A program made the position numbers and the translations under genes. From a virus (Duplodnaviria; Heunggongvirae; Uroviricota; Caudoviricetes), in IMG/VR virus record IMGVR_UViG_2778261527_000007: DNA of 12,961 bases. One strand, 5' to 3'. Positions within the stretch are counted from its first letter, which is position 1. Each line of letters opens with the position of its first letter. Below, one piece after another: positions 1 through 10,492 of the stretch. Below the pieces are notes generated by a model. It did not search any database and was not told where the DNA came from. It saw only the letters and a list, made by a program, of their open reading frames with translations.

Positions 1-92
1 GTGTTACCTCAGTGTAAAAGTAAAAATGAATATAACCGGAAGAGATAATCCCCAGCCGATACCCAAAGGGCGCGACCGGGGGGCATTTTGCA

Positions 93-1112
93 TTACTTCA
101 GCTTGACGTTCAGCGTGTAGTTCGGGCGCAGGTTCAGAGGGATGAAGCTCGCCTCCTGGTGAATGGTCACCATGCCGTAACGGTCAGTCATTACTTTCTG
201 GTAGAACGGGCTGATCTCGCCTTTCGCGGCGATGTCCTGATTACGGGAAGCCGGGCCGTGTACCAGTTTGAACGGGTTACGGTCAGCGCCGTTAAACTTA
301 GGAACGAACAGGCCGGAACCTTCTTCGCTTTCGTAGCGGTCATCGTCCGCCAGAATGAAAGTAATGTTGCCAATGCTGAAGGAGTCATAACCCGCAGTGT
401 TAACCGGGATCAGAGCGCCTTTTGCAGCTTCCGCCACTTTGTTGGTAATAAGGCTGGTTACTTCCGGGTGGCTCGCCAGTACGTCATACAGATCCGGGGA
501 GCAGAAGCAGAAGAAGCGGTCCAGATAGGAGCGGCTCGCGCCGTACTCTTTAACCAACATGCGGCGAATCTTCGCAAGCTGTGCATACACGTTAGCGCCT
601 GCTGAACCGTCCAGGTTGAAACTCAGCGGATCGGCACCCATCGCCGCGCGAAAGTCGATATCACCGTCGTCAGTCTTAGCCGCTTTCGCTTCCTGTTTGA
701 ACAGGGCGCGGGCCAGCGTACTTTCAACCGTTTCCAGGTGATGGTTACGCATACGGATAGCTTTAGACGCGATCACTTCAGAAATAGCCGCAACCTGATC
801 CGGGTTAGCCGGGCTGATCAGACCTTGCCAATCAGCGGTTTTTACGTCCGCTTCGGTGGCGTAGTGTGGGAGCTCCTGGTCACGCAACAGAGGCTTATCC
901 ATTTTGATGGAGTTAACTTCGGTGCCGTAGCGGGCTACCTGTTCCAGTTCAGAGACTTGAGTCTCTACGATGTCCAGAACTTGAGCGTTTGGAGTGGTGG
1001 AGTTAACACCGGAGAAGATACCCAGATCAGAGATCAGGTAATTACCCGCTGGCACTTGTTTAAGTGCCGCTACGGTGTCCAGCTTTTCAAACTGTTTAAA
1101 ATCAATAGCCAT
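93..1112 (-). CDS. Phage major capsid protein (339 aa; lambda gpE-type family suggested)
   Basis: 339-aa ORF with RBS AAGGAAAT just upstream of the ATG at 1112-1110. It lies 13 nt downstream of a ~120-aa head gene, the classic decoration-then-major-capsid arrangement; size and composition fit gpE-type capsid proteins. Family assignment is by recognition, not search. Confidence 0.7.
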   Translation of the reverse strand: MAIDFKQFEKLDTVAALKQVPAGNYLISDLGIFSGVNSTTPNAQVLDIVETQVSELEQVARYGTEVNSIKMDKPLLRDQELPHYATEADVKTADWQGLISPANPDQVAAISEVIASKAIRMRNHHLETVESTLARALFKQEAKAAKTDDGDIDFRAAMGADPLSFNLDGSAGANVYAQLAKIRRMLVKEYGASRSYLDRFFCFCSPDLYDVLASHPEVTSLITNKVAEAAKGALIPVNTAGYDSFSIGNITFILADDDRYESEEGSGLFVPKFNGADRNPFKLVHGPASRNQDIAAKGEISPFYQKVMTDRYGMVTIHQEASFIPLNLRPNYTLNVKLK

Positions 1113-1124
1113 TGTGTGATTTCC

Positions 1125-1496
1125 TTATGCTTTGAAGTAATCGGCGTTGATAGCCAGGCGAATATCACCGGAGGCTGTCAGCGCTTCCAGTGCGGCTTTT
1201 TTGCTCGCGGCGTCTTTAGCACGTAGGGCAAAATCGGTAATCACAACATGGCGATCCACGATAACCAGAGTCTTAGGCTTGCCATCGGCGGACATATTGG
1301 AAAGGTTGATGATCGGCTTGCCAGCGTCAGCGGCGGCGGAGTCGAACAGTGCAAAAGTTTTGCTGTCCAGGAGGTCACCGCAGAAGACGTCAGCCGGGAG
1401 GCTTGGGGCGGTGACTTCGGTGCGGTCAAACAGGCTGGAGGCGTAATTCACGATTACGTCACCTTGCGTTACCGGGTAGCGCTCGGAAGTTTTCAT
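1125..1496 (-). CDS. Small phage head protein, decoration-like (123 aa)
   Basis: Internal ATG at 1496-1494 preceded by AAGGAAAA, the same RBS context as the capsid gene; the longer track ORF (to 1640) has a Cys/Pro/Arg-rich N-terminal extension that is unlikely to be real. Ala/Ser-rich 123-aa protein immediately upstream of the capsid gene. Confidence 0.55.
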   Translation of the reverse strand: MKTSERYPVTQGDVIVNYASSLFDRTEVTAPSLPADVFCGDLLDSKTFALFDSAAADAGKPIINLSNMSADGKPKTLVIVDRHVVITDFALRAKDAASKKAALEALTASGDIRLAINADYFKA

Positions 1497-1689
1497 AAAG
1501 GTTTTCCTTATGGAGGGTTTTAGACGTGGAGAGAGTCCACAGGGTGATCCGGTGCAACGCCGGATATAAGGACCGCCACAGAGGACAATCCGAATTGTTG
1601 GAAGATGGGAGGCCGTGGGGTGAATAGAAGAGGGCGGCATCCGCGCCGCCCTTTCTAATCTGGCTCTCTCTCACCCTCTAGGGTGGGGG

Positions 1690-1709
1690 GAGGTGTAAAC
1701 CTCTTTTTT
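1690..1709 (+). terminator. Possible intrinsic terminator hairpin (GAGGU-GUAA-ACCUC followed by UUUUUU)
   Basis: 5-bp stem with GNRA-type tetraloop followed by six T. Nothing obviously coding upstream on +, so the role is unclear. Confidence 0.3.
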
Positions 1710-1767
1710 GTGGTCACTCACCCGCCAGCGTCACGGGAGCAACCGCCAGCCGATGGGTAAATAACCA

Positions 1768-1796
1768 CAAAAAAGAACCCGGTAGGAGAGACCGGG
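1768..1796 (-). terminator. Intrinsic terminator upstream of the head gene pair
   Basis: On the - strand: CCCGGU-CUCUCCU-ACCGGG perfect 6-bp GC-rich stem followed by UUCUUUUUUG. Sits ~270 bp upstream of the decoration-like gene start. Confidence 0.45.
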
Positions 1797-2697
1797 AGAA
1801 GACAATGTAACTTACTGTCTGATCACTTGTTTTCCTGTGTAGCCTCAGAGCCTTACATGATTTGCTTTCATGGTTCAGCAAAGAAGCCACAGAGGAAAAC
1901 GGGACGCAACCAACGCCCCGGAAACCATCGACACAAATCAACAGTTTATCGTTGAGACCAGGTAACCAGCCCGGCCCAACTGTGGACCCCTAAAGGGTCA
2001 ATACAATCGAAGGAGATTCCGCTTGTATTCTGAAGAGCCGCAGTTAGCGACGCTTTAAAATAGGGCCTGTGCCGCAAGCCCTATGATTAGAGGCATTTTG
2101 AATCGTAGGAATGTCATCAACTGGCGGAACTTGAGGAGAGGACCGCACACAAAGCATTCTGGCAAGTGGAGTTGAAAGAACGCTTTGGGTGAGGGCCGGG
2201 GACTTGCTGAAGGTTCCCGGCTCTCTTACAGACCCTGACAGGTTGGCTAAAACCCATGTTTCTGTACAGGTGTGAGGCGGCAAGCTGCAAAACGGCGATT
2301 TCGACATACTCACCATATCCCACACCATGTATATTAGTTTAACACGAATGATTATCATTTGCAATAAAAATTAATTGCATTGTGTTGTTTGATATGATAT
2401 GTGAGATTGAGGGCAGATCTGGCGGCAGGTACAGAGGAGCCACACAGAAGAGGGGCGGGAGCATCCCACAGGGGCCACAGGAAAGCCTCCACGGGGTTTT
2501 AATGGGGTAAGATGATAAATGACCTTGTCACAGTGGCGGACGCGCTGGAGAGCTTTACAGGAGGTTGTAGAGGGTGGAGGGATTATTGATTGATAATTGA
2601 ACAGGTGAGAGTGTAATTAATTTTTATTGACAGTCTATAAAGATCATGTTATTTGCGTGTGCATACGCACTCACGCCCGCGCCTCCGCGAACACATC

Positions 2698-2802
2698 TTT
2701 TAAATAAAAGATTTTTATTATAATCGTTCAATCGGACTTTGACAAGTCCTCTTTCACTCTTAAATAAAAGATCTTTTATATAATATCTATCGTTCAATAA
2801 TT
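2698..2802. repeat. AT-rich imperfect direct repeat (two ~40-bp copies, ~60 bp apart)
   Basis: TTAAATAAAAGAT(C)TTTTAT..TAAT..CGTTCAAT occurs at 2698-2735 and 2758-2802. A TTGACA hexamer lies between the copies (2739-2744). Confidence 0.5.
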
Positions 2803-2948
2803 AATCGCTTAGGCTCTTAATTATTTCACTCATATATTATTACCATTAAAACCTTCTCGGCCTGATCGGCCTTACCAGGTTTTAGGCCGTAGGCCTGTTC
2901 CCACAATGTGGAGTCTCGCCTGTGTGGCTCACTCCAGACAGGGACCCC

Positions 2949-3006
2949 GGAAATATTTTCCGGGCAGGGTGGAAGATTTTTCCGGCCTGTTAGGAAATAT
3001 TTTCCG
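2949..3006. repeat. Three phased 14-bp repeats GGAA(A/G)AT(A/T)TTTTCCG at 22-bp spacing
   Basis: Copies at 2949-2962, 2971-2984 and 2993-3006, each a near-palindrome (GGAAA..TTTCC). The 22-bp phasing equals two helical turns, typical of protein-binding arrays (operator, iteron or packaging-site type). Confidence 0.6.
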
Positions 3007-3414
3007 ACAATAAGACTATATATAAAACTACCCATAAGACTAACACCCAGGGGCCAGGTCAAGATCTTTAAGGGAGTGTTGGGGAAATCGTAGATTGATT
3101 GGTAAGAGACTGATCTCTGTTAAGCGTCTTACAGACGCGCCTCTTTGGCAGCGCTCGTACCAGCGAGCAAGACCCCTTTGGAACACCGCACGATGTAAGG
3201 TGACCTCTGGGCGGCGGGGTGGGGTCCCCGGCCCGGCATAACGTACAGAACCACAACCCACAGGAACCCACCTAAACGCGCCGCTGTGGCGCTCTCTCCT
3301 ACGTAGACAAGGAAACACCTTATAAACGCCCTCCGGCGCTCTGAGAGCCTTACAGGGGCTTTCTGTGCCTATAGCACAATAAACAAATGATCGCAAGATA
3401 AATCAATAAAGTTA

Positions 3415-3443
3415 TTGCGAATCATTGTCAAATAGTGTAAAAT
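3415..3443 (+). promoter_or_regulatory. Candidate sigma70 promoter for the + strand operon
   Basis: TTGCGA (3415-3420), 17-bp spacer, TAAAAT (3438-3443), ~75 bp upstream of the first ORF. A second candidate is TTGTGA (3449-3454) / TATATA (3472-3477). Confidence 0.3.
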
Positions 3444-3517
3444 AGATATTGTGACGGGGTAGTTAATCAGGTATATAAATCCCCATCATACTATAACCAA
3501 CCCAGCAGGAGAATGCA

Positions 3518-3943
3518 ATGAGTATTTACCTTGATGTTGAAAAAATGGTTGAACGTGTCGATCAGCGTGATCTGACCCGTAAGACCCTGACAGAAACCCG
3601 CAGCCGGATGAAAGCCGCCGGACGTATGAGAGAAGTAGAAGCGATTACGCAGGCCCTTGAATTGACCAAATCCAGTGCCTCCGGCGTTATGCGCCAGTCT
3701 CAGCGCCTCACAGGTAAAATTACAGAGATGGACGCAGAGAAGGCATTAGAGCTTAAAGCAACCGTTGCGCTGTTCGCTTCCAAGTCTACGGATCTGCAAG
3801 CCTCCATTGTGCTGGCGTTCCAATCCCTCTTTGAGGCTAAAGGCGTGCCGATGGAATATGACGAAGTGATGGCCTACATCATGTTGAATGCGGCGGATCA
3901 GTTTGAGCGTATCACCGGAGAGCTACCCGTAATCGTACATTAA
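3518..3943 (+). CDS. Hypothetical protein (141 aa)
   Basis: First gene of the operon; ATG preceded by AGGAG with a 6-nt spacer. No family recognised. Confidence 0.65.
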   Translation: MSIYLDVEKMVERVDQRDLTRKTLTETRSRMKAAGRMREVEAITQALELTKSSASGVMRQSQRLTGKITEMDAEKALELKATVALFASKSTDLQASIVLAFQSLFEAKGVPMEYDEVMAYIMLNAADQFERITGELPVIVH

Positions 3944-3972
3944 TTTTTAACTTACTTTTTGGAGAGGAAACA

Positions 3973-4158
3973 ATGAGCAAATATCAGCCTTATGTTGATT
4001 TGAGTGATTCCCCTGTGTTGTCAGCGTATGCACAGCAGACGATCAACCAGTTAGACCCCATCCTGTATAGCGACATTTACGAAATGTTGACGCAGGTTAG
4101 CCCCTCCCAAATGGTGACGATTGGCAACCCGGCTATTACCGCCCCGGCGTCATGGTGA
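3973..4158 (+). CDS. Hypothetical small protein (61 aa)
   Basis: ATG preceded by GGAGAGGA; tightly packed after the previous gene. Confidence 0.45.
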   Translation: MSKYQPYVDLSDSPVLSAYAQQTINQLDPILYSDIYEMLTQVSPSQMVTIGNPAITAPASW

Positions 4159-4220
4159 GGTGATTGGTTCGGCCTCAACCTCACCGCTGAAGACATCGCA
4201 GAATTAAAGGAGATTAGCCT

Positions 4221-4409
4221 GTGAGTAAAAATAAAGAGTTGGGGATCAGCTTCGATCCCTATGTGATGGAGCAGCTTTTCGCGTTGGCCTCCACCCGTGA
4301 ACATGGCAGCGTTCACACCATTGTTAAGAAAGCCGTTAGCCAGTACCTGAAAACCGTTAATTCCATCTCTGTTAAGGATTCCCAAAATGACAGCAGCCGC
4401 AGTAAGTAA
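4221..4409 (+). CDS. Ribbon-helix-helix (CopG/Arc-like) DNA-binding protein (62 aa, GTG start)
   Basis: GTG start preceded by AAGGAG. N-terminal pattern ISFDPYVMEQLFALASTREHGSVHTIVKKAVSQYLK fits the beta-strand/helix/loop/helix layout of RHH regulators. Confidence 0.5.
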   Translation: MSKNKELGISFDPYVMEQLFALASTREHGSVHTIVKKAVSQYLKTVNSISVKDSQNDSSRSK

Positions 4410-5049
4410 GCCATTTACCGCAATCCCGCATGACCTTGCGGACATTGAGCTGATCGGAGGCAAGGCGTTTACCATGAACATGGTTTACACCTACAGCCTG
4501 ATCAAAGGTTACCAGGACAATGGGCAAACGGCCTATTTCTCACAAGATCTTTTAGCCCGTCGCCTGGGGGCCACAGATCGAACCGTCCGCAACCTGTTGC
4601 GCGATATGTTGGAGATGGGTCTGATTAACAAGACCGGGCAGATCGGCGGCAAGACCTGCCATTACACAGTTAACCCGATCACCCCGGAAATGGTGGGAAC
4701 CCCTGAAGCCGCCAAACCTGAAGTAACCAAACCAACCGCAGCACCCCAACCGAAGGAGACCGTAGAGAATGCAGGAAGTAACCAGCCTGGAATTGTTAAG
4801 TGTGGATCTGAAAGTGTACATAGAAGCCGCCCGGCGTCGCCTGGAGCTTCTCCTGTGGACCACAGCGGGGGCGCTATTCGTCCCGCTCCTGTCCCTGTGC
4901 CAGTAGAGCAGGGGGCCGCAAACGATGATTTACGCAACCCTGTTATTAATTTTGTGGCTGGCTCTAATGTGATGATGGTCAACGGCTTGCCTGTTGAATA
5001 TCTGGAGCCAGAAGAAAGCGCCGTTGATCAGTTTGGTGATGCTTTCTAA
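4387..5049 (+). CDS. Winged-HTH (HTH_36-like) DNA-binding protein, possible replication initiator or organiser (220 aa)
   Basis: ATG preceded by AAGGA; overlaps the RHH gene by 23 nt. Motif AYFSQDLLARRLGATDRTVRNLLRDMLEMGLI resembles the HTH of phage/plasmid replication proteins, followed by a Pro/Ala-rich linker and an acidic C-terminal domain. Alternative start at ATG 4474. Confidence 0.6.
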   Translation: MTAAAVSKPFTAIPHDLADIELIGGKAFTMNMVYTYSLIKGYQDNGQTAYFSQDLLARRLGATDRTVRNLLRDMLEMGLINKTGQIGGKTCHYTVNPITPEMVGTPEAAKPEVTKPTAAPQPKETVENAGSNQPGIVKCGSESVHRSRPASPGASPVDHSGGAIRPAPVPVPVEQGAANDDLRNPVINFVAGSNVMMVNGLPVEYLEPEESAVDQFGDAF

Positions 5050-5125
5050 AAATCTGCAATTGATTTCCCAATAATAACACTATACACCAAACCCCCGCGC
5101 TTTACAACCCTCTGGAGACTCTCGC

Positions 5126-5692
5126 ATGAATGAATTTATTACAACCAAATTCAAAGCCTTATCCTCTGAGGAAGAGGCCGCAGTTAACGCACTGGCTGAG
5201 AAATTGGCAGCAAACAAGCCCCGCCGGATTATGGATGAGAGCCACTTAACCCCGGATCAAATCCTGAAGATCAAGCGGGCCTGTATTCAGGGCCACAGCG
5301 CTAAAGCCATCCAAGCGGCGTTTAATGTGTCGCTGGCTTACGTCCTGAAAGTAAAGCGCAGCCACAACCCCCAGAAGTACCAAAAGACCCCGCTAACTTT
5401 GGCTGAAAAAGGCGTTATGGCTAAACAGATGGAAGCCGACGGCCTGAGCCTCTCCAAAATGGCGGAACTCCTGGGGATTAACAGTAAGATGGTCTCCCTA
5501 CTTCTTACCCAACCTTCACCCCGTTACCTGGTGGAGCAAATGCTCCCGTATGACCAAGTTTTGCAGAATCTACGCAGCGCCCGCTATGTAGAAAACCCTG
5601 TATACAAAGAGGGGACGAATAAGCGCCGTGTGCGTCTAATCGTTTCTGAAGCACGTCAGCAGACCCGCCAGGCAATCATTAAATCCCGGTAA
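5126..5692 (+). CDS. DNA-binding protein with two predicted HTH motifs (188 aa)
   Basis: ATG preceded by GGAGA. Two HTH-like segments (..GHSAKAIQAAFNVSLAYVLKVKR.. and ..GLSLSKMAELLGINSKMVSLLL..) and a basic C-terminus. Confidence 0.6.
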   Translation: MNEFITTKFKALSSEEEAAVNALAEKLAANKPRRIMDESHLTPDQILKIKRACIQGHSAKAIQAAFNVSLAYVLKVKRSHNPQKYQKTPLTLAEKGVMAKQMEADGLSLSKMAELLGINSKMVSLLLTQPSPRYLVEQMLPYDQVLQNLRSARYVENPVYKEGTNKRRVRLIVSEARQQTRQAIIKSR

Positions 5693-5863
5693 CTATGCCC
5701 AACCCAACGGAATGGGGTCTAAAGGATTATTTAGGCTCCAAACTGGTTAAGCGTCAGACAAGACTCTCTAACTTTCTCGCCTCACTCCTCTACATCCCCT
5801 TTAAACCCGCCTCCCTCTTCCTGTGGGGTGTGGTAATCACTTTACTTATAAGGACCCTCTCAC

Positions 5864-6238
5864 ATGGAAGCATTTAAGAACCTCCTCAATCAGTTGGAAA
5901 TTCAGAAGGCAGAACAGCGCCAGCGGGAAGCCGAAGAGGCAACCAAACAGAACGAACTCCGCAAGGCACAGGCCGATCTGTCACTGGATGAGGCTATCGC
6001 TCTGTACGCCACACAGTTGGAAGCCTCCGCCAATGCCGCAGACAGCGCCCAGAAGGGCCGCGCCATTAAGAGCCGGGGAATTGCTCTGTGTCACAAGGAT
6101 CAGGGATTCAGCGCCAACGGTCGCCCGGTCTCTCTCCTGACCAAATCCGCAGACCTGCCAGCAGGTCACCGCCGGGTAATCATTAACAAGGCAGCAGGGC
6201 GCACCCTGAAGGCTATCAAACTGGAAGGGGATGAATAA
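5864..6238 (+). CDS. Hypothetical protein (124 aa), translationally coupled to the tape-measure-domain gene
   Basis: ATG preceded by AAGGA. Its stop TAA (6236-6238) overlaps the next ATG (6238-6240) as TAATG. N-terminus is coiled-coil-like. Confidence 0.6.
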   Translation: MEAFKNLLNQLEIQKAEQRQREAEEATKQNELRKAQADLSLDEAIALYATQLEASANAADSAQKGRAIKSRGIALCHKDQGFSANGRPVSLLTKSADLPAGHRRVIINKAAGRTLKAIKLEGDE

Positions 6239-8373
6239 TGAGCGGTAACGTGATCATTACCAAAACGATTAACCGGACCATGTTCACCACGGACGGGGCC
6301 AGCTATAAAAAGACAGTTGACCGTATCAAACAGGTAGGGAAAGAGTGGGACAAAGTAGCGTCCAAGATGAAACCGCTACGCCTCAAGTTTGAGGAAAACG
6401 CCTACACCAAGATCCGCCGGAAACAGCAGGACGCCGCCGCAAAAGCAGCACTGGCAGAAGCCAAAGCCAAAGCGGCAGCAGACGCCAAAGCAGCCAAAGC
6501 ACAGATCGCAGCGGAGCGTAAGATCCAGACAATCCGCGCTAAAGCTATCCGCTTCAGCACTTCAGCGGCTAACGCCAACGTGACCCCGGCCCAACGTGCT
6601 GGACACCTCCAGGAGTTTGGACAGCTTACGCGCCAGTATCACGCCGGGTCTATGGCATTGCAGGAATATAACGCCCGTGTGTCAAAACTTCAGCAAACCA
6701 TGCGCCAACAAGGCCGGGTAGGCATGAGGGGAGCCACAATTCCAGTAACCGCCAAAGTTAACAAACTGGACACCTCCATGATCGAGGGTGCAGGGGGGGC
6801 GATCACCATTGCCGCAACTGTGGCGCTGAGCGGCAAGATCATGACCACCGGGCAGGATTTTGAATCCGCGCTTTCTGGTCTGACAGCGATCACCGGTTCC
6901 ACAGATAAGGCCGCTAAAGAGTTTGATTATCTCCGTGATCAATCCAACCGTTTGGGGCTGGACCTCCTGAAGACTTCAAAGGATTACACTCAATTTGCCG
7001 CCGCTGTTGGTGACAAACTCCCTAAAGACCAGATGAGATCCATCTTTGAGGGTGCCAGTGAATGGGGCCTTGTTACTGGTGCAGACGCCGACGCACAAAG
7101 CCGCGCTTTGAAAGCACTTAACCAAATGATGAGTAAGGGAACGGTGATGAGTGAAGAACTCAAAGGCCAGCTTTCCGAAGCTCTCCCGGGCGCTGTGGGT
7201 CTGTTCGTTAAGGCTCTCAACCAGATGAAAGGGACAACCAACCTTACAGAAAAGGATCTGTTTGACCTGATGCAACAAGGGAAGCTGTTCTCTAAGGACA
7301 TCCTCCCGGAAGTGGCGAAACAGATGAAAGCCGCAGCTCGTAACGGCGGCGCTCTGGATAAGGCTATGAAGTCCAACCGGGCAAGTTGGCAGCGCCTGCA
7401 AACCAGTATGCAGAACGCTATGAATATCTTCTTTACTTCTGGCTTTGGTAACTCACTAACCAGCGCTTTCGACGCTATCAGCGCCGCTGTTAACGGCTCT
7501 GGTGGGGCCTTTGAGATGTTCGGGCATATCGCCGGGAAAATCGTTGAGGGTGCCACAGATGCGTTTACAGAGTTGCACGACACTGTGATCCTGACCTTCC
7601 GCATTATTGAGTATTACGCCGCTAAGATGGGGATCACTGGTGAGCAGCTTAAATCCTGGGGAGAAATGGCAGCATACGCCGCCGGGGTGGCTCTGTTCGC
7701 TGGCTCTATCTGGAAGTTGGGCGGGGCCTTTAAATGGTTGTTGACCATGCTCAACCCGCTAACCAAATTGCTGGGGGTCATGAAAGGGATCGCCGCTATT
7801 GGTGGCATTGAATCCGCTACAACTGGCGGATCTGGTGGGGAAGGTAAAGACAAGCCAAACAAACCGGGCCGGGGTCCGAAAGTTGGCAAGGTAGGCGGCG
7901 CGGCGGCTCTCTCTGGCGGTCCTGTTGGCTGGGGCATTGCGATCGGTTCGGTAGGTGGGGATTATGCCTGGGATAAAGTCATGGACGCTAACGACGCCAT
8001 GTATGGACAGGACACCACCGCCGGAGGCAATCTGAAGAAAGATAGCCCGCTGGGTAAACTGTGGGATTTCATCCACAGCCCAGACCTTCCGACTAATCCA
8101 GACTTTGCCAAACCAACAGATAAAACAGGGTGGGTAAGCTCTTACTCCAATCCGGGTTATGTTCCTCCTGCGCCGACGATTACAGCGCCACAGCTTAAAG
8201 TTGATATGGCAGGTAATCCACTGATGACGCCGCCAGCGTGGCTAAACCAGCCGCTTAACGTGAACGTCAATGTGAAAGTGCAGGATGGGCAGGTTAGGGA
8301 TCTGGTCCGCTCTGAAGTTGAGACCAACAACCAGCAGGCTTTCAACATGCTGATGCAGGGCGGGCCGAACTAA
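6238..8373 (+). CDS. Phage tail tape-measure-domain protein (711 aa)
   Basis: N-terminal Ala/Lys-rich coiled coil, then a region (..ADAQSRALKALNQMMSKGTVMSEELKGQLSEALPGAVGLFVKALNQM..) matching the conserved tape-measure domain as I recall it. C-terminal half has hydrophobic Gly-rich segments (..VGGAAALSGGPVGWGIAIGSVGG..) typical of tape-measure proteins. RBS AGGGGA. Confidence 0.75.
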   Translation: MSGNVIITKTINRTMFTTDGASYKKTVDRIKQVGKEWDKVASKMKPLRLKFEENAYTKIRRKQQDAAAKAALAEAKAKAAADAKAAKAQIAAERKIQTIRAKAIRFSTSAANANVTPAQRAGHLQEFGQLTRQYHAGSMALQEYNARVSKLQQTMRQQGRVGMRGATIPVTAKVNKLDTSMIEGAGGAITIAATVALSGKIMTTGQDFESALSGLTAITGSTDKAAKEFDYLRDQSNRLGLDLLKTSKDYTQFAAAVGDKLPKDQMRSIFEGASEWGLVTGADADAQSRALKALNQMMSKGTVMSEELKGQLSEALPGAVGLFVKALNQMKGTTNLTEKDLFDLMQQGKLFSKDILPEVAKQMKAAARNGGALDKAMKSNRASWQRLQTSMQNAMNIFFTSGFGNSLTSAFDAISAAVNGSGGAFEMFGHIAGKIVEGATDAFTELHDTVILTFRIIEYYAAKMGITGEQLKSWGEMAAYAAGVALFAGSIWKLGGAFKWLLTMLNPLTKLLGVMKGIAAIGGIESATTGGSGGEGKDKPNKPGRGPKVGKVGGAAALSGGPVGWGIAIGSVGGDYAWDKVMDANDAMYGQDTTAGGNLKKDSPLGKLWDFIHSPDLPTNPDFAKPTDKTGWVSSYSNPGYVPPAPTITAPQLKVDMAGNPLMTPPAWLNQPLNVNVNVKVQDGQVRDLVRSEVETNNQQAFNMLMQGGPN

Positions 8374-8442: not shown

Positions 8443-9009
8443 TCATAACAGATCTTCTATTGAATATTTATTACTGAAATCATCTACTTTGCGTTGTGTG
8501 GCCCCAATGTAATGGAGCGTACTGGATAACGATTTGTGCCCCAATGCCTTACTGATTACGGCTATATCCTCCCCATTGTCATAACCAATCGTTGGTTTAC
8601 TCTTCCTCATGCTGTGGGTCGAAAGATTCAGCCCCAGCTTTTCCCCGGCGTAGCTAATTTCCTCATGCAATTTGGAGCGGCTCACAGGTTTTCCCTTGCT
8701 CCTGTGGCTGTCCAACTGTAAGAGGTATACATGATCAGGGTTCGCCTCTCTCCGGGCCGCTATGATGCGTTTAGCGGTATCGGTGAGCCTCACCCGGACA
8801 GATTCACCCGTTTTCTGTTGGGACAGGACAAGGTGATCGCCTTTGATGTCGTCATAACGGATAGAGCGCAGATCCGACACCCTCAGCATTAATTCATAAC
8901 CCAGCAACCAGGCGTCACGGTACAGCGTCAGCCCCTTGCCCTGTTTGAGTAGCTCAACCGCTACCGCTTTCACTTCCTGAACTGATTTACAGCCCTCTAC
9001 GAAATTCAT
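8443..9009 (-). CDS. Tyrosine recombinase, integrase catalytic domain only (188 aa; FimB/FimE-sized)
   Basis: Strong RBS GGAGGG 5 nt before the ATG. All catalytic signature residues of lambda-Int-type recombinases are present in order: R (LRVSDL), K (QQKTG), H-x-x-R (HSMRKS), H and Y (LGHKSLSSTLHY). There is no room for N-terminal arm- or core-binding domains. Confidence 0.75.
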   Translation of the reverse strand: MNFVEGCKSVQEVKAVAVELLKQGKGLTLYRDAWLLGYELMLRVSDLRSIRYDDIKGDHLVLSQQKTGESVRVRLTDTAKRIIAARREANPDHVYLLQLDSHRSKGKPVSRSKLHEEISYAGEKLGLNLSTHSMRKSKPTIGYDNGEDIAVISKALGHKSLSSTLHYIGATQRKVDDFSNKYSIEDLL

Positions 9010-9033
9010 TCTGTACCCTCCAGATCCTAACTG

Positions 9034-9050
9034 TGATCAATTCTTGATCA
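9034..9050. promoter_or_regulatory. 17-bp palindrome TGATCAA-TTC-TTGATCA with two GATC sites, in the recombinase promoter region
   Basis: Perfect 7-bp inverted arms with a 3-bp spacer, 25-41 bp upstream of the recombinase start codon. Confidence 0.35.
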
Positions 9051-9403
9051 AAAACATGCACTTGTAAACGACAAAAATGATTAATTTTATGATGTGTCTT
9101 TTTAGTGAATTAAATCGGGTTTAATCGCGTTTAATGGTAAAGTAATGACCCGGCAGGGGAGGTAATGACCTGTTTAAGTGGGTAAAAGATGGTTACTTAA
9201 TGTACTATCACCACAAGGCGGGTAAGGTGATTTGACTCCCCCAGCGCCTTAAAGTTACTGTATTTGTGGGCAATTAATTATTGTTTCGTTATGGTGTTGC
9301 CTGGCAAATTTTCAATTTACCCTCAAGAAAAAATCCCCAGCTTTTTTATCCTTATATGAGAATCAATATCATTTGTAAACGATAGTCGTTCTCGTTACCA
9401 ATC

Positions 9404-9582
9404 GGGGCGAAAGCCTTCGCCCCTCAAAGGGCCTCTGTAGGCCCGCTCTCTGTATGCGCCTGTGGCGCTACCACTCTTAACCCTGTGGGTTTGTATTACT
9501 TGTCACAAGATAATGCGCCACAGGCGCACAGGGGAGGCGTCCGCCTCCAGGGTGGCCCGGCTGGGCCACTGGTCCACAGGGT
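9404..9582. repeat. Cluster of GC-rich hairpins and nested inverted repeats
   Basis: Successive perfect stems: GGGGCGAA/TTCGCCCC (9404-9423), GGGCCT/AGGCCC (9429-9444), GCGCC-TGT-GGCGC (9456-9468) and its reverse complement GCGCC-ACA-GGCGC (9515-9527), GGAGGC/GCCTCC (9533-9548), GTGGCCC/GGGCCAC (9552-9569). A 9-bp inverted pair ACCCTGTGG (9480-9488) / CCACAGGGT (9574-9582) encloses part of it. Does not match the REP consensus I remember. Confidence 0.5.
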
Positions 9583-9972
9583 AAAACAACAGAATGGTAT
9601 TGTGTTGTTATTAAGTAATTGAGAATAAAGGGATATCTGAGTGAGCGCACTGTAAGAGCGGAAGGTTGGACAATGTTTGACCAGAATGCAGGCCATCCGG
9701 TAGGGAGCGCCCCCAGATATTTGGCGAAAATACTCTCATCACCCGGGGCCTCAGATCGAGGGGCCTAGCAACAATATCCAAACTCCCGGATATTTTCCCA
9801 CCCAACTGGAAGGAATCCGCCCCTATTTTCTGTTCGTGTATAGGTTAGGCTGAGGGAGGCTTGCCAATGTACACCCCCTGGATTTGGTGATCTGTTAAGT
9901 TATTGATTTTGATCGATTTTAGATCAATCATCCGTTGCCGGGATTACCCCCCACCCAGACGGATGGCACACA

Positions 9973-10155
9973 ATGAATAACGATAAAGCAAACCACCCTA
10001 AACACTTCCAATACTTGGGCCGCATGGTCACTGTTTACCCTACATACATCATTATTGACGGTATCAAGATCAGCCGTGCCCGTCTTTCCTTTGCATTCCA
10101 ATTGGAATTGGCAAAAGCACTTCGACTGCATGAAGAAAGCGTATGCAGAAAATAA
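9973..10155 (+). CDS. Hypothetical small protein (60 aa), uncertain
   Basis: ORF followed 37 nt later by a strong intrinsic terminator; RBS is weak (GGATGG). Confidence 0.3.
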   Translation: MNNDKANHPKHFQYLGRMVTVYPTYIIIDGIKISRARLSFAFQLELAKALRLHEESVCRK

Positions 10156-10191
10156 ATTTCATTTAAATCTTCACGACTGAATAATTTACTT

Positions 10192-10217
10192 AAGCCGCCT
10201 TATGGGCGGTTTTTTTT
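10192..10217 (+). terminator. Intrinsic terminator
   Basis: GC-rich stem (GCCGCC / GGCGG) with 5-nt loop, followed by eight T (10210-10217). Confidence 0.6.
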
Positions 10218-10366
10218 GTGCCTGCCATTTATCTGTGGGTCACAACGTGAGACACAAACTGGGACACAGAGGATTTTTTAGGGTTGAGTCTTTGGCTTCC
10301 CGCTGGCATGATCCAGAACAGGGATTAACGGGACGTTAATCGCAAGCTTTTGATTTTGTTTTATTT

Positions 10367-10492
10367 GACTCGGGGTGCCCTTCTTAAATGAAGGCTGAGA
10401 AATACCCGTATTACCTGATCTGGATAATGCCAGCGTAGGGAAGTCACGGACCACCAGGTCATTGCTTCTTCACGTTATGGCAGGAGCAAACT
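10367..10492 (+). promoter_or_regulatory. TPP (THI-box) riboswitch in the thiM leader
   Basis: Aptamer (about 10367-10445) GACUCGGGGUGCCCUUC..GGCUGAGAAAUACCCGUAUUACCUGAUCUGGAUAAUGCCAGCGUAGGGAAGUC is near-identical to the E. coli thiM TPP aptamer as recalled, including the CUGAGA and ACCUGAUCUGGAUAAUGCCAGCGUAGGGAA elements. Expression platform runs to the thiM SD and ATG. Confidence 0.9.

Follow-up and report, generated by a model that had tools for sequence, protein, structure and literature searches.

A capsid-decoration gene pair in a 13.7-kb integrative element of Enterobacterales that resembles a phage satellite

In phage lambda (D-E) and in Certrevirus phages (DEC-MCP), a gene for a decoration protein of the gpD fold lies directly 5' of a gene for a capsid protein of the Phage_cap_E family, with the pair placed after the terminase, portal, protease and scaffold genes of one operon. 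The stretch of DNA analysed here (12,961 nt; IMG/VR virus record IMGVR_UViG_2778261527_000007), hereafter the window, contains the same two genes in the same order, whereas here they stand alone behind a non-coding region of 2 kb. What, then, is a capsid gene doing without the rest of a head module? Our analysis suggests that the pair probably serves as the head module of an integrative element of 13.7 kb with the behaviour of a phage satellite, and that these genes would stay silent until a helper phage infects. More tentatively, and with some doubt, we propose that the element represents an undescribed, Enterobacterales-wide family of satellites of virulent Vequintavirinae-type myoviruses, whose hybrid virions would be built on the portal, protease, terminase and tail of the helper, with a mimic of a helper motif acting in recruitment and a structured leader of ~830 nt gating the capsid operon.

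The head-gene pair and the unit that carries it

The pair and its immediate surroundings comprise the following features, given by window position unless a locus is named (L001 is the copy in Escherichia coli strain 90-1).

93..1112, minus strand: major capsid protein of the lambda gpE / Phage_cap_E family, 339 aa (Pfam, PHROG).
1125..1496, minus strand: head decoration protein with a predicted gpD-like fold, 123 aa (sub-threshold HDPD match, AlphaFold model and Foldseek).
1497..3517: non-coding region 1, 2,021 nt, its position and size (1.8-2.07 kb) conserved in the family.
L001 14809-15000, ending just left of window position 1: p63, an open reading frame (ORF) of 63 aa and the third gene of the operon after the capsid gene (synteny of relatives).

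The decoration gene lies 5' of the capsid gene with a gap of 12 nt, and an AAGGA ribosome-binding site precedes each of the two. The initial annotation had named the capsid gene from the letters alone, and hidden Markov models now place its product in a family: residues 15-271 matched Pfam PF03864 (Phage_cap_E) with an E-value of 4.4e-14 (52.7 bits; cut-off, 22.9) and residues 4-338 matched PHROG 29, 'major head protein', at 1.6e-14. The protein also matched the PDB capsid chain 9zbi_A at 1.2e-7 and is colinear with the Certrevirus major capsid protein at an identity of about 20%, while no close relative was found among 50,697 phage records, where the best match had 24% identity.

The decoration protein matched HDPD, the Pfam family of lambda gpD, with an E-value of 1.6e-3 and 19 bits, under the cut-off of 29.1. 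Full-length matches to HDPD were obtained for 21 of 25 members of the decoration family, none of which reached the cut-off (best E-value, 3.5e-5); PDB sequence searches with the protein and its profiles returned no match, and comparison of the family profile with the Certrevirus DEC sequence was not significant. A confident AlphaFold model (pLDDT 84.7, pTM 0.79) was obtained when distant homologues from an exhaustive search were included, a shallow alignment having given a pLDDT of only 37.6. Comparison of this model with the PDB by Foldseek revealed that the 18 best matches were all capsid decoration proteins, among them Bas63, phiTE DEC (TM 0.59), Sf14, lambda gpD and phage 21 SHP, with a probability of 1.00 for the first 8 matches and TM values of 0.5-0.6. 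As modelled, the decoration protein is of the gpD-type (beta-tulip) fold, nearest to the folds of Bas63, phiTE and Sf14; like other members of this group it would sit in trimers on the three-fold sites of the shell. Values of dN/dS of 0.12-0.24 for the capsid gene and 0.10-0.32 for the decoration gene indicate that both are under purifying selection. In two relatives, L007 and L015, the decoration protein is 93-95% identical to that of the window and the adjacent capsid protein just 67-68%, a mismatch that points to recombination between the two genes.

The window corresponds to an island that E. coli carries between rcnR and thiM; strain 90-1 has a copy 99.9% identical to the window. That copy allowed the DNA to the left of window position 1, where head-tail joining and tail genes might have been expected, to be inspected: it holds just p63, which has a helix-turn-helix-like segment and follows the capsid gene in all relatives, then a convergent gene for an OLD/AriA-like ATPase, the gene for a 452-aa tyrosine integrase, which lies outside the window, and the chromosome. 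On the other side, the 2,021 nt upstream of the pair (1497-3517) contain no conserved ORF. The isolation of the pair behind a terminator-containing non-coding region, as first described, is therefore borne out, there being no portal, protease, terminase or tail-tube gene nearby. In the complete element, no Pfam, PHROG or tblastn signal was found for a portal, head-tail adaptor or connector, TerL or TerS, nor were there homologues of protease, sheath, tail tube, tail chaperone or baseplate hub; when 21 Certrevirus structural proteins were compared with it by tblastn, the only matches were to the tape measure and to one N-terminal motif of a head protein. The element is without portal, protease, terminase, tail tube, sheath, baseplate and lysis genes. 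An incomplete set of virion and lysis genes alongside integration and replication modules of its own is what generally marks a satellite, and the element has this combination.

Its boundaries are defined by attachment sites, of which the right one lies within the window.

10366..10400, plus strand: right attachment-site core in the 5' part of the thiM thiamine pyrophosphate (TPP) riboswitch, a direct repeat with the left junction.
10361-10458: TPP riboswitch (Rfam TPP, 75 bits).

The element is bracketed by an 18-nt direct repeat (plus 13 nt more), with the left core in the area of L001 10447-10480. In L018, a metagenomic copy that is free of interruptions and whose capsid protein is 100% identical to that of the window, 13,668 bp separate the two cores. 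A Logan contig of 13,700 bp runs through the joined attachment site, and the 30-nt overlap of its ends implies a circle of 13,670 bp through attP. The attP holds about 75 nt of riboswitch-like sequence, so that the riboswitch is whole again after insertion.

The same unit recurs widely. More than 20 loci, in Escherichia, Enterobacter, Citrobacter, Cronobacter, Pectobacterium, Pantoea and metagenomes, share one gene order, a gap of ~2 kb (1.8-2.07 kb) and much the same overall size, with changes limited to a cargo slot and sometimes the recombinase, and no relative has extra head or tail genes. Homologues of the capsid and decoration proteins were found in Escherichia, Enterobacter, Citrobacter, Cronobacter, Klebsiella aerogenes, Pluralibacter, Pectobacterium, Serratia and Pantoea, and many independent contigs that carry them measure 13.0-14.5 kb. 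A scan of species-representative genomes returned one locus; at the rcnR-thiM locus of E. coli, matches were present in 43 of 5,426 complete genomes, just 2 of the 43 covering at least 80% of the query. Phage lambda has a T=7 head and a genome of 48.5 kb. By our own estimate, a gpE-type shell scaled from lambda would hold about 13.6 kb at T=3 and about 21 kb at T=4, and the size of the element would suit a small head.

The leader RNA upstream of the pair

The features of the DNA upstream of the pair, in the order in which they would be transcribed, are listed below.

2336..2364, minus strand: sigma-70-like promoter with extended -10 (TTGCAA, 17 nt, TG-n-TAAACT; alignments of relatives).
1497..1928, minus strand: predicted structured RNA leader holding T1-T3 and two long hairpins (folding and covariation).
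1900..1920, minus strand: terminator-like hairpin T1, whose stem covaries (helix 2).
1829..1900, minus strand: long hairpin H2, with arms that include the U-tract of T1 (inverted repeat I5).
1778..1796, minus strand: terminator-like hairpin T2, followed by UUCUUUUUUG; the terminator seen in the initial annotation.
1702..1776, minus strand: long hairpin H3, with 22-nt arms that include the U-tract of T2 and a loop with two copies of GCTGGCGG (inverted repeat I2).
1631..1652, minus strand: terminator-like hairpin T3, with a 9-bp GC stem and a weak U tail.

Folding of the leader gave a minimum free energy of -184.8 kcal/mol (z -7.96), and RNAalifold returned 108 consensus pairs, 52 of them with compensatory changes. 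In the alignment of relatives, 86% of cells were paired versus 42-47% in slid controls, and there were 59 double-change pairs versus 16-27; none of 500 shuffles reached the observed values. The abundance of G-U pairs assigns the structure to the capsid-sense strand. Support extends to the individual helices: H3 (helices 9-10) shows 100% pairing over its 15 basal pairs, of which 6 covary, in H2 (helices 4-6) pairing is 92-100% and the inner stem covaries at 5 of 5 pairs, and in T3 (helix 14) pairing is 93% in 11 sequences, with GGGCGGC/GCCGCCC replaced by GGCCAGC/GCTGGCC. The U-tract of T2 is invariant in 11 of 11 relatives; it doubles as the 5' arm of H3, just as the U-tract of T1 does for H2. 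With a GC hairpin and a U-tract each, T1-T3 fit predicted intrinsic (Rho-independent) terminators, and positions 1-3600 contain 8 terminator-like sites on both strands versus 4.1 +/- 2.3 in shuffles. The terminator first noted before the pair is thus present, its end at 1796 being the start of the middle hairpin T2, but what precedes the pair is a conserved structured RNA with three such hairpins. The distal half of the leader (1929-2334) forms local hairpins without net support from covariation, and for this reason we do not claim a single structure of 830 nt.

Searches of the non-coding regions against Rfam 15 at gathering and permissive thresholds identified no family, the TPP riboswitch being the only match in the window, and a search of 1400-3600 at E-values up to 1 gave nothing credible. 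BLAST of non-coding region 1 against phage and plasmid records gave AT-rich noise alone, with no mimic of a pac site or promoter.

The sigma-70-like sequence at 2336-2364, ~830 nt upstream of the decoration ATG, is the sole conserved promoter-like site facing the pair, and TGNTAAAMT occurs once in the window. No consensus-grade promoter was found on the capsid strand between 1497 and 2716. The promoter spacer (2348-2360, minus strand) holds AATGATAATCATT, which agrees at 14 of 19 positions with the Fur-box consensus, is retained by most relatives and may point to regulation by iron. In the structural region of phage P7_Pc (L014), TGnTAAAAT occurs 5 times, always on the coding strand, versus 0.57 expected, and three of the copies lie just before structural genes (L014 12637, 13237 and 20253). 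The -10 of the satellite promoter (window 2336-2344; CATGATAAAAT in the relative L006) is of the same extended -10 type as the P7_Pc motif. This is a weak hint that the satellite and a helper-type phage might share late-promoter recognition; the 9-mers that the leader shares with intergenic DNA of the helper type were sparse and weak.

These features suggest how the operon could be controlled. In the integrated state, transcription from the promoter ~830 nt upstream would end at T1-T3, leaving the capsid genes silent. Infection by the helper, or a satellite protein made in response to it, would bring about read-through or altered processing of the leader, and read-through could be caused by antitermination, a modified polymerase or leader processing, after which the decoration protein, the capsid protein and p63 would be produced. 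An explanation that we regard as unlikely, although it survives better than the other rivals, keeps the satellite and dispenses with read-through: the pair would be driven by a nearby promoter that is helper-dependent or satellite-activated, and the hairpins would serve RNA stability, processing or the ends of small RNAs. The long perfect stems of H2 and H3 do resemble substrates of RNase III, the conserved promoter and T1 could delimit a separate RNA of ~420 nt, and the likeness of the -10 element (TGnTAAAAT/TAAACT) to the over-represented P7_Pc motif would suit activation by a helper. The interval between T3 and the decoration ATG, however, has no conserved promoter-like sequence and is itself conserved as paired RNA.

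The helper question and competing explanations

Two genes on the other strand bear on the identity of the helper of the proposed satellite.

5864..6238, plus strand: 124-aa motif protein (PF26210, Phage_phiTE_211).
6238..8373, plus strand: tape measure protein, 711 aa (Pfam TMP_3, 8.5e-25; phrog_5255, 1.1e-110).

The best phage relatives of the tape measure are in the Certrevirus/Vequintavirinae group (phiTE, CB7 and CR3, with relatives from Enterobacter, Pantoea and Klebsiella) at 36-39.5% identity, and the protein falls about 100 aa short of the tape measure of P7_Pc (813 aa). The 124-aa protein carries the motif IKSRGIALxHxDQGxSANxRxVSLLxKS: its residues 63-95 are 79% identical over 33 aa to residues 7-39 of a 368-aa P7_Pc protein (orf004), whose gene has the prohead protease gene on one side and the genes for decoration and capsid proteins on the other, in the position of a scaffold. 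The CB7 homologue of orf004 is a minor virion component. The motif was matched in 226 phage records and is invariant in 11 homologues from satellites of the proposed family, while a PDB sequence search with the 124-aa protein gave no match. The host genera of the element overlap those of Certrevirus phages, whose member phiTE has a T=13 head made of capsid protein and a beta-tulip decoration trimer. Judged by these resemblances, a virulent myovirus of the Certrevirus/Vequintavirinae type would be the most likely helper.

In one relative, a 734-aa protein fills the tape-measure slot (L029 3891-6095), of which the N-terminal ~120 aa alone match the Vequintavirinae-type tape measure family. This suggests that the slot may be a swappable, helper-specific module.

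We infer helper dependence, the identity of the helper, packaging, capsid size and read-through of the terminators. Once the operon is expressed, the motif protein would join the foreign shell to the portal, protease or core of the helper, the element's own shorter tape measure would give satellite-specific tails, and the small shell would package the 13.7-kb genome, all other parts of the virion coming from the helper. The suggestion in the initial annotation of a capsid-remodelling module of a satellite-type element, expressed by read-through or antitermination, fits this evidence as far as the satellite and the proposed mode of expression are concerned; the remodelling does not, as the element encodes a capsid and a decoration protein of its own.

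Several points weigh against the proposed satellite. Neither a terminase small subunit nor a pac or cos site was recognised. We know of no described precedent for a foreign shell assembling on a helper portal. The gene for the 124-aa protein overlaps the start of the tape measure gene (ATGA), the typical position of a tail chaperone, which makes a role in a head scaffold uncertain, and the protein may serve the tail instead. Known helper-type proteins are modest matches, with 36-39% identity in the tape measure and about 20% in the capsid protein, so the real helper may be unsampled or of another group. The terminator function of T1-T3 is a prediction, and the promoter at 2336-2364 scores just 8/12 against the consensus. 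Finally, most E. coli copies are IS4-truncated remnants that keep the small recombinase and non-coding region 2, and in the 90-1 copy IS911 splits the integrase gene.

The partial likeness to phage proteins would also suit an unpackaged mobile defence island, in which the capsid, decoration, motif and tape-measure proteins are decoys that poison the assembly of Vequintavirinae-type phages; we consider this quite improbable. Its proteins are only partly helper-like yet carry a helper motif, an OLD/AriA-like defence gene is aboard, and satellites or islands that disturb tail or capsid assembly are known, as PMC11364771 describes and as Rta of PLE11 also illustrates. A full-length and strongly conserved capsid and decoration pair, however, exceeds what a decoy needs, and the narrow spread of sizes near 13.7 kb despite variable cargo argues for a packaging limit. 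Moreover, the element occupies many genera yet lacks genes for conjugation or transfer, and interference need not exclude self-packaging, as known satellites can combine the two.

Damage by insertion sequences is what would recommend a third explanation, in which the element is the remnant of a lambdoid or other prophage that lost its terminase, portal, protease and tail genes and whose pair is decaying: the reference E. coli copy has IS911 in its integrase gene, and matches at the E. coli locus are mostly IS4-truncated fragments. This we hold to be very improbable. The minimal gene set, its order, the non-coding regions and the size of ~13.7 kb recur in many genera and in metagenomes, the ORFs are intact with dN/dS of 0.1-0.3, precise 18-nt repeats flank an uninterrupted copy, one contig is circular, and further head or tail genes are absent from every relative. 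Taken together, the recurrence of the pair and its ~2-kb leader in a unit of the same size and order in more than 20 loci, the attachment repeats, the circle and the dN/dS values refute the proposal of the initial annotation that upstream genes were lost. The case that the annotation named as refuting its view, related intact prophages with the same gene order and non-coding leader, which would make this the native start of a late operon, is matched in form alone: order and leader recur in relatives, yet no intact prophage is among these. Least credible of all is an autonomous shell system that has nothing to do with phage parasitism, for example an encapsulin-like compartment or a particle like a gene-transfer agent: HK97-fold shells do exist outside viruses, and HK97-fold 'mini-virus' genomes of small size that lack portal and terminase have been put forward, but here a tape measure, a helper head-protein motif, a replication module and an integrase that has its attachment sites accompany a shell gene without a gene for a cargo-loading enzyme beside it.

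Remaining modules and comparison with known satellites

The rest of the window consists of a divergent operon, a small recombinase gene and further non-coding DNA.

3518..5877, plus strand: first part of the divergent operon, with p141, p61, p62, a 220-aa protein, a 188-aa protein and p60.
4387-5049, plus strand: HTH_36 replication-initiator-like protein, 220 aa (Pfam HTH_36; PHROGs 'replication initiation O-like', 5.9e-6).
5126-5692, plus strand: double-HTH protein (p188), 188 aa.
8443..9009, minus strand: small tyrosine recombinase, 188 aa, catalytic domain only, of the FimB/E size class (Pfam Phage_integrase, 3.2e-17).
2949..3006: iterons GGAAATATTTTCCG, two copies, adjoined by an AT-rich stretch at ~2700-2850.
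9010..10365: non-coding region 2, with a GC hairpin cluster (9385-9600) and a 60-aa ORF (9973-10155) (alignment of relatives).

The first part of the divergent operon is syntenic in all relatives. Neither p141 nor p188 has a phage homologue among the records searched, and no informative family or phage homologue was found for p141, p188, p60, p61, p62 or p63. Each relative has 3-4 copies of its own repeat of ~22 nt at a spacing of 22-23 nt in the matching position, and the iteron sequence differs between relatives, as does the initiator-like protein; by this pattern, the iterons and the AT-rich stretch are probably a replication origin matched to a variable initiator. The small recombinase is 98-100% identical across relatives, even where capsid proteins share just 57-70%, and all of its matches to NCBIfam Xer and DNA-invertase models were below the cut-off. 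Of non-coding region 2 (1.36 kb), the first ~780 nt are almost invariant across relatives and include the hairpin cluster, which is rich in CCTGTGG/CCACAGG (12 sites in the window versus 1.8 expected); this DNA might serve for packaging, encode an RNA or be the target of a recombinase. Conserved non-coding sequence makes up about a quarter of the element. No tRNA genes were found.

To the left of the window, L001 10604-14773 takes in the split integrase gene and the cargo slot of E. coli 90-1, which holds the OLD/AriA-like ATPase (PADLOC Old, 7.9e-46). In other relatives the slot is filled by a PHP-domain protein paired with either a Sua5/YciO/YrdC-family protein or a 2-hydroxyacid dehydrogenase-like protein, by a serine recombinase alongside HNH proteins, or by a DUF1493 protein. 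Pantoea cypripedii (CP024768.1; L016 13384-20117) has a second, tandem element of a related subfamily. It is without a tape measure gene, has its ~2-kb non-coding region at the opposite end of the operon, and encodes a motif protein (168 aa) directly before co-oriented decoration (114 aa) and capsid (339 aa) proteins.

Searches for satellites of Vequintavirinae, for satellites with capsid and tape measure genes and for the RefSeq protein accessions found no published description of the element, although their coverage was incomplete and an earlier description is possible. If our reading is correct, this would be the first satellite linked to phages of the rV5/phiTE type, within the literature searched. 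Such phages are common candidates for therapy or biocontrol against E. coli, Enterobacter, Cronobacter and Pectobacterium, and resident copies of the element could affect their efficacy. The 33-residue motif would offer a handle on how shell, portal and protease meet, and the conserved non-coding quarter with its covarying RNA a compact system for the study of late-gene control at the level of RNA.

Among known satellites, P4, whose helper is P2, is likewise an enterobacterial integrative satellite (11.6 kb) with a decoration protein, Psu. It differs in having no capsid gene, resizing the P2 capsid with Sid instead, and in its Psu, which is unlike gpD. Searches with Pfam, PHROGs and NCBIfam revealed no P4 core gene (psu, sid, delta, the alpha primase-helicase, epsilon or alpA) in the element, which is also without the P4 cos. 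In P4 immunity, a small RNA causes premature termination in a long untranslated leader, which is a possible analogue of the terminator-rich structured leader described here.

The PLEs (elements resembling phage-inducible chromosomal islands) of Vibrio cholerae, whose helper is the virulent myovirus ICP1, resemble the element in size class, in a role in defence and in having a large virulent myovirus as helper, in our case a likely one. PLEs, including PLE11, encode a tape measure ~95 aa shorter than that of the helper and build chimeric tails; the tape measure of the element is ~100 aa shorter than the Certrevirus one and may likewise serve chimeric tails. PLEs reshape the helper coat protein with an external scaffold, TcaP (PMC10945586), whereas the element brings its own capsid and decoration proteins. 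PLEs also use a large serine recombinase in a Vibrio host, in contrast to the tyrosine integrase (serine in some relatives) and enterobacterial hosts of the element, and its sequence showed no homology to PLE genes. EPIPs of Mycolicibacterium (bioRxiv 2025, PMC12822802) are also small and are reported to have capsid, scaffold and tape measure genes. By their description they are set apart from the element by TerS, a head-to-tail adaptor, a stopper, a serine integrase and a temperate, siphovirus-type prophage helper in Actinobacteria.

In its way of working the element would be a cross of PLEs, with their virulent myovirus helper and own tape measure, and cfPICIs, with their own capsid. The latter are phage-inducible chromosomal islands that form capsids (cfPICIs; Alqurainy et al. 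2023; definition, de Sousa et al. 2023, PMC10085698), which, like the element, are 10-15 kb long, occur in Enterobacterales, encode their own major capsid protein, rely on a helper and carry variable accessory or defence genes. Unlike the element, they carry protease, portal, head-tail adaptor and connector, TerS, TerL and HNH genes, and the replication and regulation genes of the element are unlike their alpA and primase-replicase type. The detection model for cfPICIs calls for at least 9 of 11 core components and forbids tail genes (PMC10085698); the element has its own capsid gene, falls short of that number and carries a tail gene, although some cfPICIs have been reported with putative tmp genes. 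As most of the required cfPICI core components are lacking and a tail gene is forbidden in both models, the cfPICI and PICI models of SatelliteFinder should miss the element. If our reading holds, the element would represent a satellite strategy between two extremes: P4, PICIs and PLEs take the coat protein of the helper and cfPICIs bring a whole head with its packaging machine, whereas this one would supply no more than the shell, the cement for it and a ruler for the tail.

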